Part shown: positions 30,672 through 35,335 of the stretch, piece by piece
Layout of the letters: each line of letters begins with the position of its first letter
How positions within the stretch are numbered: the first letter of the stretch is position 1
Virus record (IMG/VR): IMGVR_UViG_2654587674_000003
Reading direction: 5' to 3' (one strand)
Length of the DNA: 64,000 nucleotides
Origin: a virus
Lineage: Duplodnaviria; Heunggongvirae; Uroviricota; Caudoviricetes
Translations under genes and position numbers: made by a program
The notes under the pieces: model-generated
What the model was told of the DNA's origin: nothing
What the model saw: the letters and a program-made list of their open reading frames with translations, nothing else
Databases searched by the model: none

Positions 30672-31439
30672 TCACCCCATAGATATCGAGGTTTCGGTAA
30701 TAATACGTTTTGCGTCCAACTCCCATGCTGTGATCACGTCTGCAATCACACTTATCGGCGCTTGTGTGGCATAAATACGCTCTTCTCCAATTGGTGCTGA
30801 AACATCCGTAAAGCCGACTTCTTTGGCATCCTGTATCGAGCAAATCAGCGGGACCGGGACACGAACAAGGTGAGTGGTTGCTTCAAATTGTGTACCTGTC
30901 ATCAGGCGAAGCCGTGCGCCCAGCGAATTACACATCAGACTCATGGTCGCTTTATCAGTTGCCATTAACGTAACGTCATACGTCAGAATGGCCTGGGTGT
31001 ATTCCAGTTCTGCTAAAGGCATTCCGGTATCCGGTTCGCAAAAACTGGCTACTTTTTTGCGGTCAATCTGCTGATCATCGTTGATATAATTGATATCCAT
31101 AGTGCGTGAGATATTGACCAGGGGGAGAGCATCCCGGTTAATGTTCTGGTTTTCAGGTTTTCTCCCTTGCCCGGCATTTGCGCGACGAACTGCTTTAAGA
31201 AACTCGATCGCATTGTCGAAACGGGCCACATAGACACGCTCTGCTGGTGGACGATTCAGGAATGACGCAAAGCGTTTTTCTTCCGGCGCGGGGGCCACCA
31301 GTAAGATATCAGAAAAAATGTTGCTGATTAGCGTCGCAAACGCGTTATCCACGTTTTCAAAGCCCGTGGTCTGGAATTTTCCTGTGCGTGAGGTTTGCCA
31401 TTCACCTGTTCGCGCCAGGAGGGTTTTATTTGAAGTCAT
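30672..31439 (-). CDS. Baseplate/tail hypothetical protein (255 aa)
   Basis: ORF in cluster. Confidence 0.4.
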   Translation of the reverse strand: MTSNKTLLARTGEWQTSRTGKFQTTGFENVDNAFATLISNIFSDILLVAPAPEEKRFASFLNRPPAERVYVARFDNAIEFLKAVRRANAGQGRKPENQNINRDALPLVNISRTMDINYINDDQQIDRKKVASFCEPDTGMPLAELEYTQAILTYDVTLMATDKATMSLMCNSLGARLRLMTGTQFEATTHLVRVPVPLICSIQDAKEVGFTDVSAPIGEERIYATQAPISVIADVITAWELDAKRIITETSISMG

Positions 31440-32239
31440 TCGATCACTCCGTTTTGAGTCGTATCAAAATTCCTGGCAGGTATGCAGTAGTAAAGCGAAC
31501 CAACATGCTGTGTGCCGTAGCTAAAAATACGGTGCACGTACCACCAGCGGCGCGCTACGCCGTTTACCATCTCTTCATTCCATTCAAGAATTGAGCCGAC
31601 GGGGACGTTATTTGCTGCAATACGCAGAATCAGAACATCATCGGTTAAGCCATCCTGCTCACCGTCTGCGTCAATCGCATGGAAAGAGTCACGCCCGTCA
31701 GGGTTATCCAGCACATAAACGATTTCAGGTTCCTGGTAAGTCAGTTCGCGTTGGTTGTTATCCAGTTCAGTGAATGACTCTTCTCCTGTTTCGTCGCTGA
31801 CTACCCCATATGTGCCAACATCTGGTCGATATAAGAGAGCCTGAAACGCGTCTGGGCTGGATTCAATAATCAGCATCCAGTCTGCGCGGATTTGGTCGTT
31901 AAAGGCTTTATGCCCGTTATAGCGTGCTTTTAACTGTGGAGTCGGTTCTCTGCCAGCCAGGGAAGATGGAAGTATGGCTATATCTGATTCGCCAGCATCC
32001 GGAGTAAGGCCACCGTTGCTATCAGCAAAATTATCATGGCTATCAGCTTTGGCGGCGGGTTGCTCTTCCAGAATGCTGAATGAATCCGAACCGGTATTGC
32101 CATGTTCCGGCGCGCCTCCTGCATTCGCTTCAATCGGCGCTGGCGTTTCTCTCTGCGTGCTGTCATGTTCTGACTCCTTACTTGCCAGGTTTGCATCGTC
32201 AGCAAACCATTCGTCAAAACGGCCCATAAGCATCCTCAA
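31436..32239 (-). CDS. Baseplate/tail hypothetical protein, acidic N-terminal region
   Basis: TTG at 32239; more likely start is ATG at 32227 with GAGGA upstream. Confidence 0.4.
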   Translation of the reverse strand: MRMLMGRFDEWFADDANLASKESEHDSTQRETPAPIEANAGGAPEHGNTGSDSFSILEEQPAAKADSHDNFADSNGGLTPDAGESDIAILPSSLAGREPTPQLKARYNGHKAFNDQIRADWMLIIESSPDAFQALLYRPDVGTYGVVSDETGEESFTELDNNQRELTYQEPEIVYVLDNPDGRDSFHAIDADGEQDGLTDDVLILRIAANNVPVGSILEWNEEMVNGVARRWWYVHRIFSYGTQHVGSLYYCIPARNFDTTQNGVIE

Positions 32240-32389
32240 AGGTCGATCTGTCAGGTATCGAAAGGAAGATTTTCGGGAGATTGTGATTTTGGATGAAGGA
32301 GGGGGAATTCATAAAATGCACTTGCGCACAGTGCAACGGTGCGCTATAGTTATGGCATTCGGTAATCATCACGGAGGATCAAATGACTA

Positions 32390-32692
32390 ATGACCAAAAA
32401 AATTAACATAAAGGATTTCAGGGATGCGTGGCTTGATGATTTTTTTGAATTTTCAACACCACATAGAAAGATACCTCCTGATATTCATATGACATTGTCA
32501 CGGAAGTTGGACATTATCAATGCCGCAACTACCTGTAAGGATTTAAGATCACCACCAGGTAATCGGTATGAGGAACTGTCAGGGAAGCTAAATGGCTATT
32601 CATCAGTAAGGGTGAATAAGCAATATAGGTTAATTTTTAAGTGGGTTAACGGAAAGGCCGAGGACTTGTATCTCGACCCTCACAAATACTAA
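32390..32692 (+). CDS. higB: HigB-type toxin (plasmid-killer / RelE-ParE superfamily)
   Basis: 100 aa; C-terminal RVNKQYRLIFKWVNGKAEDLYLDPHKY pattern; toxin-first order; GGAGG RBS. Confidence 0.7.
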   Translation: MTKKINIKDFRDAWLDDFFEFSTPHRKIPPDIHMTLSRKLDIINAATTCKDLRSPPGNRYEELSGKLNGYSSVRVNKQYRLIFKWVNGKAEDLYLDPHKY

Positions 32693-32762
32693 AACAGATA
32701 CCCGGTTACGGACCGGGTTCTGACCAGAGTCCACTTAATACGCACGCTAGTAAGGGCAAAAA

Positions 32763-33101
32763 ATGAAACAGGCAACCAGAAAACCGACGACCGTAGGTGA
32801 TATCCTGCTGTACGAATACCTGGAGCCGTTAGAGCTGAAGATCAACGAGTTAGCAGAAATACTTCATGTTCATCGTAACACCGTAAGCGCTCTTGTTAAT
32901 AACAATCGTAAGCTAACGATGGATATGGCATATCGCCTGGCAAAAGCATTCGATACTTCTGTAGATTTTTGGATTAATCTTCAGACCGCAGTAGATCTGT
33001 GGGAAGTCGAAAATGATATGCGCGTCCAGGAAGAGTTAAGTCGTATCAATACTGCTGAAAAATTTATTTCTCAGCGGAACCTGAATAAAAAAGCAGCCTG
33101 A
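32763..33101 (+). CDS. higA: HigA-type HTH (XRE) antitoxin
   Basis: 112 aa with HTH segment LKINELAEILHVHRNTVSALVNN. Confidence 0.7.
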   Translation: MKQATRKPTTVGDILLYEYLEPLELKINELAEILHVHRNTVSALVNNNRKLTMDMAYRLAKAFDTSVDFWINLQTAVDLWEVENDMRVQEELSRINTAEKFISQRNLNKKAA

Positions 33102-33118
33102 TATAGTAAAACACATAC

Positions 33119-33150
33119 AAAAAGCCCACTTAGCAAGTGGGCTTTCCTTT
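33119..33150 (+). terminator. Rho-independent terminator after higA
   Basis: AAAGCCCAC-TTAGCAA-GTGGGCTTT then T-rich. Confidence 0.65.
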
Positions 33151-33157
33151 GTAATTA

Positions 33158-33358
33158 ATGAACATTAAACCTATCCGTACAGAACAAGATTATGAGGCCG
33201 CACTGCGTGCGGTCGAACCGATGTTCGATAACGAACCGGAAATGAATACTCCGGAAGGTGATTTCTTTGAGGTTATGAGTCTTCTCATTGAGGAGTACGA
33301 GAAGAAACATTACCCAATTCAACCACCATCACCTGTTGAATCTTTTAACTATCCATAA
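33158..33358 (+). CDS. 66-aa protein resembling the N-terminal (non-HTH) domain of E. coli-type HigA; no HTH
   Basis: Pattern I-x-x-E-x-x-Y-x-x-A-L-x-x-V...N-E-P-E shared with the HigA N-domain as recalled; ORF ends at the boundary of AT-rich DNA. Confidence 0.4.
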   Translation: MNIKPIRTEQDYEAALRAVEPMFDNEPEMNTPEGDFFEVMSLLIEEYEKKHYPIQPPSPVESFNYP

Positions 33359-33379
33359 TAAAAGTAATCAGGATAAGCT

Positions 33380-34108
33380 ATGATGTCAGAAAAAGTTAAA
33401 GATAATCCGTCTATAAATGAAACAGAACTAAAATCATTTTCTGAAATAATAAAAGATAAAATATTTAACAAGGTTTTTGCATATGTTGTCATTTCTTTTC
33501 TAATTTTTAACTGGAAGGATATTTTAATTATATTAAAGTCAAAGGACGACATCCTATATACATTATCTATTGTTTCTGTTGGTGGTAATGTCCCGTTCAT
33601 TGATAATTGGATTGTATCCCCGTGGGTTTATCACGTTGTAATCCCATTTATTTATGGAGTATTTGCATCTGTGTTAGCTCCTGTTCTCACACTGAAGATA
33701 TCTAAGCTAACAAGTAAATTATACACTGAAATAAGATATTTAGATGAAGTTGCTGATTATGATAAAAGAATAGAATTGCAAAGAAAGAAAACAAAGTTAA
33801 ATCAAGCAACCAATGACGCTAAATATTCAAAACAAATCTTAGATGAAAATGAAAATAAACTTAATGACTTGGTTACGAAACAGCGAGAAATTTGTGGCGC
33901 GATAAAACTATTGCATACTGATGTTGGCAGTATTATTGAACTATATAAAAATAAGGGGGTTAGCATTGAATCTCCGCAAGATTTATGTGATTTTATAGTC
34001 GCTATAAAAAGCACATCATTCTATAATGATGACAAGCATTTTAATAAATTGGTGTCTGATATTTCCAGTTTGTTTGATAATACTGGAATTGATCTTTCAA
34101 AAAAATGA
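33380..34108 (+). CDS. Multi-TM membrane protein with coiled-coil-like cytoplasmic C-terminal half (242 aa); AT-rich cargo gene
   Basis: Hydrophobic helices about residues 32-52 and 85-110; markedly AT-rich codons versus neighbours; own terminator. Confidence 0.6.
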   Translation: MMSEKVKDNPSINETELKSFSEIIKDKIFNKVFAYVVISFLIFNWKDILIILKSKDDILYTLSIVSVGGNVPFIDNWIVSPWVYHVVIPFIYGVFASVLAPVLTLKISKLTSKLYTEIRYLDEVADYDKRIELQRKKTKLNQATNDAKYSKQILDENENKLNDLVTKQREICGAIKLLHTDVGSIIELYKNKGVSIESPQDLCDFIVAIKSTSFYNDDKHFNKLVSDISSLFDNTGIDLSKK

Positions 34109-34114
34109 AAGCCC

Positions 34115-34155
34115 AGCATAAACTACTAGGCTATGTGTGGTTTATGCTTTTTTTA
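34115..34155 (+). terminator. Terminator after the membrane-protein gene
   Basis: AGCATAAAC ... GTTTATGCT stem followed by TTTTTTT. Confidence 0.55.
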
Positions 34156-35335
34156 CATACTCCATGAACATTTTTTCAGCTTGTGCTGGTGGTGTTCCAG
34201 CCATGACAAGCGCATCAATGAACGCCTGCTTCTTCAGTGCGAACTGATCGGCAAGGCGTTGCTGAAGCTCCTTGTTTTTCTGTTTCTCACGTTGCAAGGC
34301 CGCTTCTTTTGCTGCCGCCCGTTTTTTCTGTGCATCTGACAACTTTCTGGCCTTGGTCAATTGGTCACGTAGTTTGTCGATCTTGCCGTTGTCCTTTGCC
34401 AGTTTTGTACTTAAAGCTGCCTGGCGCTTCTGATAGAGCCTCCATTCGCGTTTGGCGGCTTCAACGTTCGTTTTACTGCTACGATTGCGATTAAACTCCT
34501 TCTCGTCTTCTTTTGAGAAGTGTTTGGTTGTACGGCGGCGATCGTCACCAAATGCAATTTGCGTTGCAGCCTTTTGTAGCGCACGAGCAATACTCATTTG
34601 CCAACTGGCGGACTGTAACCGCGTCATTGAGTGGATCACGTGTTTACAGGCGACGCCTTGCAGCTTCGGGTTGCGAACTTTTGGATAGGCGTATTCTTTT
34701 GGCGGTGCCAGGGCAAAGTTACCCGCAGTGGCGATGTAACGATACCAGTATTGATGACGACCACAGTCACAATCGAAAGACACTCGCCCGGCGCACAGTG
34801 ATTTAGTGATTTTGAGAGCTGATTTATCGTCTTCTGCGATGTCATCAACCATCTGATCCCATTCTTCAAAGCGTATCCGGACGATATGGTGCTGGTGGAC
34901 GGATATATCCGATGCTTCTACGCGGATATTAATCACATTGTGGCGAAGAGATACGGGTGTAGCTCTTTTGATACCAGATCCGTCATCCACGGCGTTATTT
35001 GCACGCTTAATATCGATTGCCTGGCTGGATGCCACCAGCTGGGCGTATGTGATGCCAGCCGTCTTGCTGTCATATTTTTCGCGCGTTTTACTCCGTAGCT
35101 TTTCGAAACCTTTCAGGTCGTCTCGCGTGAAGAACGTGCCGCCTTTTTTCTTCCCTAACTTGAGAATATCTTCGGCGGATTTGTTCCTCAGTCTACCTGG
35201 CGTCAGCGTCCGGTGAGCTTGTCGGCGCTTACGGGTTTGTTCTTTCCTGATAAGGTCGAATAAACGCGTGAAGTCCTTAGAGGACAGGCCGTCAGTGATA
35301 TAGCGCCCGTCCTGGTTTTTCAGGAAATCAGGCAT
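34142..35335 (-). CDS. Hypothetical protein with CxC...CxH Zn-finger-like motif and basic coiled-coil C-terminus (397 aa)
   Basis: FDCDCGRH ... ACKHVIH; K/R/E/Q-rich helical tail. Confidence 0.5.
   Translation of the reverse strand: MPDFLKNQDGRYITDGLSSKDFTRLFDLIRKEQTRKRRQAHRTLTPGRLRNKSAEDILKLGKKKGGTFFTRDDLKGFEKLRSKTREKYDSKTAGITYAQLVASSQAIDIKRANNAVDDGSGIKRATPVSLRHNVINIRVEASDISVHQHHIVRIRFEEWDQMVDDIAEDDKSALKITKSLCAGRVSFDCDCGRHQYWYRYIATAGNFALAPPKEYAYPKVRNPKLQGVACKHVIHSMTRLQSASWQMSIARALQKAATQIAFGDDRRRTTKHFSKEDEKEFNRNRSSKTNVEAAKREWRLYQKRQAALSTKLAKDNGKIDKLRDQLTKARKLSDAQKKRAAAKEAALQREKQKNKELQQRLADQFALKKQAFIDALVMAGTPPAQAEKMFMEYVKKA

Follow-up and report, generated by a model that had tools for sequence, protein, structure and literature searches.

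Exchangeable alleles of a rare membrane-protein family at a cargo slot in the tail operon of D6-type phage-plasmids

The 64-kb DNA stretch analysed here (IMG/VR record IMGVR_UViG_2654587674_000003, Caudoviricetes; 64,000 nt, hereafter the window) is, as judged from its sequence, a D6-like E. coli phage-plasmid. Between two of its tail genes lies a cargo island. It holds a higBA toxin-antitoxin (TA) pair, a short open reading frame (ORF) of 66 codons and, at 33380..34108 on the + strand, a gene that we call mem, encoding a 242-amino-acid (aa) membrane-anchored coiled-coil protein. The mem gene is intact and under purifying selection. Our best reading of the island is that it is a moron slot of D6-type phage-plasmids with mem as the payload. 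As to function, we infer, at a probability of about 0.4, that Mem is a membrane protein that is expressed in the lysogen and acts autonomously in phage exclusion or abortive infection. Databases already contain the element and list its genes as 'hypothetical'; the novelty lies in how the locus is read, namely as a fixed slot in which alleles of a rare membrane-protein family are exchanged, with a series of decay stages of an associated HigBA and with TA modules recurring as neighbours.

An AT-rich gene for a membrane-anchored coiled-coil protein

An initial annotation had taken this region for a separately transcribed, recently acquired AT-rich module. A GC profile confirmed the composition: mem has a GC content of 29.1%, the window as a whole 47.2%, and no other 729-bp stretch of the 64 kb reaches so low a value (mean over the window 0.472, standard deviation 0.037). 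Low GC relative to the host locus is found for every Mem allele, and is therefore a family trait, not a mark of recent arrival. The description as a cargo island stands; 'recent' does not, since the slot is always occupied and the event in the window is the replacement of an allele cassette (~33320-34141).

Hairpin terminators had been proposed on both sides of the AT-rich region, and both were found. The left one, 3' of higA (33121..33145; 11-bp perfect stem, dG -17.9, z -4.8), resembles a terminator on either strand, the - strand having the better T-run. It lies upstream of the 66-aa ORF, and both ORFs are therefore bracketed. On the right, overlapping convergent terminators occupy 34110..34155: a + strand hairpin for mem (12-bp stem 34115-34126/34137-34148, then U7) and a - strand hairpin after the tail gene 25 (34132-34110; 9-bp stem and T-run). 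A ribosome-binding site, AGGA, can be read at 33370..33373 (+ strand), 6 nt upstream of the mem ATG.

Mem matches PHROG 8191 over its full length (positions 1-242 of 242, E 5e-121). Hydropathy analysis gives two hydrophobic segments (~32-52 and 82-106); of the 2-3 N-terminal transmembrane (TM) helices originally suggested, two are thus accounted for. An AlphaFold (AF2) model built from a 35-sequence alignment is confident (pLDDT 87.5) and replaces an earlier one from 4 sequences (pLDDT 54). It consists of short helices at 11-66, a continuous 112-residue helix at 81-192 and a small helical C-terminal domain at 199-235. The long helix agrees with the coiled-coil-like half that had been described from the sequence, and no catalytic or known domain was found in the protein. 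Over the whole family, the segment preceding TM1 has a net charge of +1.0, the loop -0.3 and the segment following TM2 +1.6; together with hydropathy, these counts suggest that both termini, the stalk and the head are cytoplasmic (N-in/C-in).

The protein had not been recognised as a member of a named family, and every comparison that we made agrees with this. The window protein had no match in Pfam, NCBIfam or PADLOC (PADLOC-DB 2.0.0). Scans of 8 alleles and 35 distant relatives against these libraries returned only coiled-coil noise (ZapB, BRE1, LmuB, JetC); the PADLOC hits of the 8 alleles were single-member coiled-coil/2TM noise only, and among 35 family members no Pfam family was found beyond such noise. 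A sequence-profile search of the PDB with Mem gave only coiled coils (E >= 0.007), a fold comparison gave no relative, and no description of the protein was found in the literature by accession or keyword. Hence neither clear homology to a characterised protein nor a match to a defence model was detected in these scans.

A fixed slot with exchangeable alleles

The island separates counterparts of the P1 tail and baseplate genes 5, 6, 24 and 7 from those of 25, 26 and mat. In P1, 3 nt separate genes 25 and 7, which belong to one late operon under LP26; D6-type elements carry ~1.9 kb of extra DNA here, on the opposite strand and in the middle of the tail operon. In keeping with a prophage moron, mem is a non-core gene placed among core ones; it has an orientation and a terminator of its own, and its composition is atypical. 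The 1.9-kb island matches E. coli plasmid pKY1497_2 at 100% identity and phage D6 at 89%. A scan of 5,426 complete E. coli genomes found the 1.9-kb region on 95 plasmids and on 0 chromosomes. The mem gene is present in 74 of the 5,426 genomes and in 148 PLSDB plasmids, whose hosts are Escherichia, Klebsiella, Salmonella, Enterobacter and Shigella. The plasmid-prophage D6 is the only sequenced phage that contains the region; Mem is absent from P1 and from every other sequenced phage.

We compared 45 related loci by tblastn and found three architectures at the gene 7/gene 25 slot. Type A has the order HigB (PF09907), a HigA of 119 aa (HigA') and Mem. Type B, to which D6 belongs, has a HigB-like protein (PF05015), a HigA of 112 aa, an orphan 119-aa HigA' and Mem. 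Type C, the commonest class (the window and 15 other loci), is arranged as type B with a HigA' that ends at codon 65/66. Genes 7 and 25 are mostly 96-100% identical between loci, with 68-82% in a few divergent elements. Mem is far more diverse: there are at least 6 alleles, with between-class identities of 60, 45, 44, 40, 38 and 35% (overall range 33-60%) versus 93-100% for the HigA' beside them. The same Mem alleles are found behind both type A and type B left halves, and the alleles therefore reassort as cassettes. One replaced cassette is visible in the window at 33320..34141, where identity to D6 drops from ~100% outside to ~68% inside; its ends lie in higA' and in the terminator, and the two Mem proteins (D6 orf73 and that of the window) are 60% identical. 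This exchange eliminated the hairpin and T-run otherwise present between higA' and mem in every type A and type B locus.

The allele class of the window comprises 16 copies with 9 distinct nucleotide alleles, all intact, and a ratio of nonsynonymous to synonymous polymorphism (pN/pS) of 0.31. Across 35 distant relatives, conservation is highest in the N-terminal membrane region, the head retains a recognisable pattern, and the stalk is the most variable part. The invariant residues all fall within 1-122 and include D26, K27, N30, K31, Y35, S39, N44, W45, H85, P89, G93 and P101.

We also noted that, within the allele class of the window, 9 of the 15 variable amino-acid positions lie in residues 43-106 (the membrane region), with a pN/pS of 0.57 there versus 0.17 in the C-terminal part (small numbers, mostly conservative substitutions); the same residues are nevertheless the most conserved region between allele classes. 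A few slot copies are damaged: an insertion sequence (IS) interrupts Mem in L008, which is on a Klebsiella plasmid, L029 has Mem in two pieces, and the Mem of L032 is a chimera of allele classes; L030 has a broken HigA' and ~850 additional bp between Mem and gene 25.

Relatives of Mem in other mobile elements

An exhaustive HMMER search of 1.84 billion cluster representatives yielded a Mem family of 50 proteins (E <= 1e-3); a word-indexed homologue search had found 7 and then 19, and a scan of genome contigs, for which the first alignment was too divergent, had returned a single locus. Relatives of Mem join PHROGs 8191, 4780, 13369, 22645 and 35327, all of unknown function.

P2-like prophages have a 216-aa relative (P0018), encoded on the opposite strand between gpS and gpV, at the orf30 position; the S/V position is one of three moron regions of P2 (PMC6823313). 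Beside this relative the P2-like slot holds a second gene (L053:4833-5576, - strand; 247 aa, PHROG 10503, no PADLOC hit), probably the 741-bp ORF described for phage R18C. Other relatives lie within a Mu-like Flavobacterium prophage, next to a bona fide Pycsar system (PycC E 6e-209, PycTM), next to a WYL regulator, among accessory genes that include H-NS and DUF4942, between IS elements and resolvases, and alone in an Enterobacter chromosome. One more sits at the gene-25 junction of a phage-plasmid that has a decayed UmuC-like pseudogene in place of the TA module. In at least 6 of the Mem contexts there is no HigA-like neighbour, and neither a conserved pairing nor co-variation of the two proteins was found. 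Taken as sequence neighbourhoods, these settings (moron slots, accessory regions of mobile elements and, once, the side of a Pycsar system) fit a role in lysogenic conversion, exclusion or abortive infection.

Downstream of two Mem homologues we noticed the C-terminal 20-28 codons of a P1-type gene 25 (61-75% aa identity; L056:4707-4790 and L058:4806-4865, both - strand). Such gene 25 relics in loci that are otherwise not phage-plasmids suggest that the cassettes were captured from a P1/D6-like element.

Possible role of Mem in the lysogen

Mem would insert in the inner membrane as an N-in/C-in helical hairpin, with a stalk of ~85 residues and a small helical head projecting into the cytoplasm. 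Because mem opposes the late tail operon and is insulated by terminators, it would be made in the lysogen; the same orientation and insulation, taken with the contexts of the relatives, point to a role in protecting the lysogen from other phages. Protection could take the form of exclusion, with Mem interfering with genome entry at the membrane. Alternatively, the stalk and head might sense a phage product and the conserved, polar-residue-bearing hairpin might then disturb the membrane, resulting in abortive infection. That Mem acts autonomously is supported by its occurrence alone in the Enterobacter chromosome, in the P2 S/V (orf30) slot, in the Mu-like prophage and in the phage-plasmid without a TA module. 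The neighbouring higBA pair would serve on its own for addiction or defence, possibly stabilising the cassette and supplying read-through transcription. Of the defence-type layout originally proposed for the island, the defence-like setting of an uncharacterised membrane protein is retained, and the two-gene effector/antitoxin model is not.

Several observations weigh against an anti-phage role. Protection is deduced from genomic context, and a recognised defence system adjoins Mem in only 1 of ~12 independent contexts. The topology is derived from hydropathy and charge counts, and the window shows no recognisable sigma-70 promoter upstream of mem. Variability between alleles peaks in the coiled-coil stalk, a part that would evolve fast without any arms race, and within the allele class the signal is purifying, not diversifying. 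As this pattern fits a low-constraint coiled coil as well as it fits an arms race, we do not claim diversifying selection.

Mem could instead have a role unrelated to defence, either in the phage-plasmid's life cycle (membrane anchoring, lysis timing, entry or exit) or as a host fitness trait. The lack of detectable similarity to defence families is in line with this possibility, as is the fact that most neighbourhoods are generic accessory regions of mobile elements. A core life-cycle function is, however, contradicted by the restriction of Mem, among sequenced phages, to D6. The low GC content of mem, its orientation against the late operon, its multiple alleles at a fixed slot and the presence of relatives at a recognised P2 moron slot also speak for cargo, and we consider a role outside defence plausible enough to be weighed but unlikely.

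If Mem does exclude phages or abort their infection, the defence repertoire would gain a new protein family, and the P2 S/V slot and the D6 7/25 slot would both be defence hotspots. The loci with an intact trio, an orphan antitoxin and a truncated antitoxin would then form a natural series for the decay and reassortment of TA modules and cargo. D6/P1-type phage-plasmids are common in clinical and animal Enterobacteriaceae, and a fixed slot with a TA module and one of many Mem alleles is a compact, easily cloned candidate for a new exclusion or abortive-infection function. Should no phenotype emerge, mem would stay an ordinary hypothetical moron.

Linkage to toxin-antitoxin modules

In large IncFIB plasmids of Klebsiella, the order HigB(PF09907)-HigA-Mem is recurrent. 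The HigB and HigA of these plasmids share only 26% and 28% identity with the E. coli-type pair, and the Mem proteins 43%; the Klebsiella-type trio is also found in the 7/25 slot of a divergent phage-plasmid. Moreover, a plasmid-like contig (L063/L064:3781-5714) carries genes for a TacA1 antitoxin and a GNAT acetyltransferase (TacAT-type) with a distant Mem relative of 237 aa directly downstream. Judged by gene order, a TA module followed by Mem thus recurs with unrelated TA families, which keeps alive the idea of a TA-coupled system of three genes.

In such a higB-higA-mem system, either the TA promoter and antitoxin would control mem, or Mem would serve as the membrane sensor or effector of the TA pair, and the window would be a degraded derivative in which mem is the sole survivor. 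The model draws on the two HigB(PF09907)/HigA pairs, mutually 26-28% identical and both directly upstream of Mem alleles (in D6-like phage-plasmids and in the IncFIB plasmids), on the movement of the Klebsiella-type trio as a unit between an IncFIB plasmid and a phage-plasmid, and on the TacA-GNAT case. Three-component defence systems with HigBA-like parts have precedents in PD-lambda-2 (PMC9519451) and in the toxin-antitoxin-chaperone systems (PMC11980606). The details of the locus are less favourable. A hairpin with a T-run is conserved between higA' and mem in all type A and B loci, no HigA' operator was found near mem, and Mem alleles reassort freely against a nearly invariant HigA'. The commonest class, that of the window, has lost the helix-turn-helix (HTH) part of HigA' and the PF09907 toxin, and its mem is still under purifying selection; many Mem relatives have no TA neighbour at all. 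The tripartite model as a whole is therefore rather improbable.

We hold the same doubt about a broader formulation that combines both ideas. According to it, Mem would found a new membrane-anchored anti-phage family that has repeatedly been paired with type II TA modules (two deep PF09907 HigB/HigA lineages and TacAT) in three-gene defence cassettes; these would move between phage-plasmids, conjugative or virulence plasmids and prophage moron slots, and the window would represent a late stage with Mem alone.

The 66-codon ORF is the remnant of a HigA gene

The ORF preceding mem (33158..33358, + strand) begins with the first ~61 codons of a gene for an E. coli-type HigA of 119 aa; ~5 codons from the junction and a stop follow. 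Its counterpart in D6, orf72, is an intact 119-aa gene. The window equals D6 from upstream of the ORF start to ~33320 and then diverges, and the frame closes after 66 codons. A simple deletion was rejected as the origin of the remnant, as the D6 alignment shows replacement of sequence from ~33320 and no clean deletion. The 119-aa HigA' is homologous to E. coli K-12 HigA over both domains (PDB 5IFG/5YCL, E 8e-8). Residues 1-61 of the ORF are identical or nearly identical to the N-terminal part of HigA', in agreement with the resemblance to the non-HTH N-domain of E. coli-type HigA noted before; the C-terminal Xre-type HTH/dimerisation domain (HigA' columns 62-119) is missing. PGAP annotates the ORF as a pseudogene, 'missing C-terminus'. 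It matches positions 1-65 of the PADLOC profile PD-Lambda-2_B (E 2.5e-16).

In type A loci, the higB promoter carries two TCCCA-N3-TGGGA palindromes around a TTTACA -35 element (e.g. L004:3136-3179), and higA' has a GGAG Shine-Dalgarno sequence within the 3' end of higB. The palindromes are candidate operators of HigA' and are present in 11 of 11 type A loci and in 0 type B or C loci. The junction between type A and type B sequence lies at most 10 nt from the higA' ATG; it removed the Shine-Dalgarno sequence and left the ATG 13 nt past a terminator hairpin. In the 64-kb window, tblastn found no PF09907 HigB, and TCCCA-N3-TGGGA was absent except for one chance-level site with 1 mismatch, with none near mem. 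The ORF thus has neither a cognate HigB nor palindromic operators. It is a relic of cassette exchange that has lost its HTH, toxin, operators and ribosome-binding site.

This bears on the earlier proposal that the ORF is a dedicated antitoxin-like partner that neutralises a toxic membrane effector, the two forming an abortive-infection pair. The ORFs are 21 nt apart between the same two hairpins, the N-terminal domain of E. coli HigA is its toxin-binding part (PDB 5IFG), and the 66-codon frame is open in 16 of 16 copies (only 3 variable sites, too few for a selection test). Such a pair is nonetheless very improbable. The ORF is a truncation made at a cassette junction, with its Shine-Dalgarno sequence gone, and HigB (PF09907), operators and Shine-Dalgarno sequence are seen only in type A relatives. 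The truncated form occurs solely with the Mem allele class of the window, and always with that class. HigA' and Mem do not co-vary (93-100% versus 33-60% identity), and no HigA-like gene accompanies Mem in the Enterobacter chromosome, in the prophages of P2-like and Mu-like type or in one phage-plasmid.

That mem itself is a spurious or non-functional AT-rich ORF, as the lack of library annotation and the label 'hypothetical protein' everywhere might suggest, is scarcely tenable given its pN/pS of 0.31 with every copy intact, motifs conserved over 35 distant homologues, an AF2 pLDDT of 87.5, and a good ribosome-binding site and terminator.

Comparison with known systems

The closest match to the island is the orf72/orf73 region of phage D6 (NC_050154, YP_009914749/YP_009914750), with the same slot between P1-like genes 7 and 25, the same upstream higBA and the same gene order; however, D6 has the full 119-aa HigA' with a hairpin behind it, and its orf73 is a different Mem allele (60% identity). 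Type A loci resemble the E. coli K-12 HigA system (5IFG, 5YCL) in that HigA' follows a PF09907 HigB and the promoter has two palindromes, whereas the window retains ~61 N-terminal-domain codons and has no HTH, PF09907 toxin or operators.

PD-lambda-2 consists of HigB-like and HigA-like proteins and an essential third gene (PMC9519451, Vassallo et al. 2022). Full-length HigA' matches the first 119 positions of PD-Lambda-2_B (E 4e-43). However, the match is confined to positions 1-119 of a 402-position profile, PD-lambda-2B has a peptidase domain at its C-terminus, and no peptidase domain is encoded in the island. The third component of PD-lambda-2 also differs, resembling the P4 antitoxin and not a membrane protein, and Mem gave no hit to the PADLOC PD-Lambda-2 models. 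The toxin-antitoxin-chaperone systems HigBAC and CmdTAC are built like the trios, with a third gene after the TA pair and all in one orientation, but this third gene encodes a soluble SecB-like chaperone, to which Mem has no similarity. The moron slots of P2-like phages (orf30 between S and V, Z/fun, tin/old) are comparable in that a Mem relative is present at S/V and forms a GC-poor, reverse-oriented insert inside tail genes, although the documented anti-phage genes of P2 are at the other two slots.

Membrane-anchored exclusion and abortive-infection (Abi) proteins include T4 Imm, P22 SieB, RexB and the 2TM effectors of CBASS, Pycsar and retrons. Mem is like them a small inner-membrane protein without an enzymatic domain, encoded by a prophage or other mobile genetic element. 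It differs in having no sequence or fold similarity to them in Pfam or PADLOC beyond single-member noise. To our knowledge, a long stalk with a head is not a feature of these proteins.

Neighbouring genes

The TA module that had been reported next to the AT-rich region is present at 32390-33101. It consists of higB, which encodes an Rts1-type HigB-like toxin (32390..32692, + strand; Pfam PF05015 E 4e-35, PHROG 3066), and higA, which encodes the cognate 112-aa HTH antitoxin (32763..33101, + strand; TIGR02607 E 8e-30, HTH_3). The left border of the island is a P1 gene-7-like tail gene (31436..32239, - strand; PHROG 1906 tail protein, E 2e-116; 'similar to P1 gene 7' in D6), and the right border is a P1 gene-25-like tail gene (34142..35335, - strand; PHROG 1722, E 4e-197; 'similar to P1 gene 25' in D6).

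In the window, the single P1 late operon 26-25-7-24-6-5 (from LP26) is interrupted by the island, and two - strand terminator-like hairpins (33119-33147 and 34110-34132) now lie between genes 25 and 7. Gene 7 and those that follow it must therefore be served by a promoter of their own in the 150 bp upstream of 32239 (32240-32389). None was identified there, and the only resemblance to the -22/-10 motif of P1 late promoters upstream of gene 7 was a chance 9-mer on the wrong strand.

Further from the island, ~3.6-8 kb to its left and near the baseplate genes, are glnS (glutaminyl-tRNA synthetase), a large Dam-family methyltransferase gene and rdgC (L001:1-4679). The presence of glnS in D6-like elements has been remarked on as intriguing (PMC6799933). 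To the right of the island, the same plasmid carries dcd, a truncated regulator of the Rha family and an Icd-like gene.

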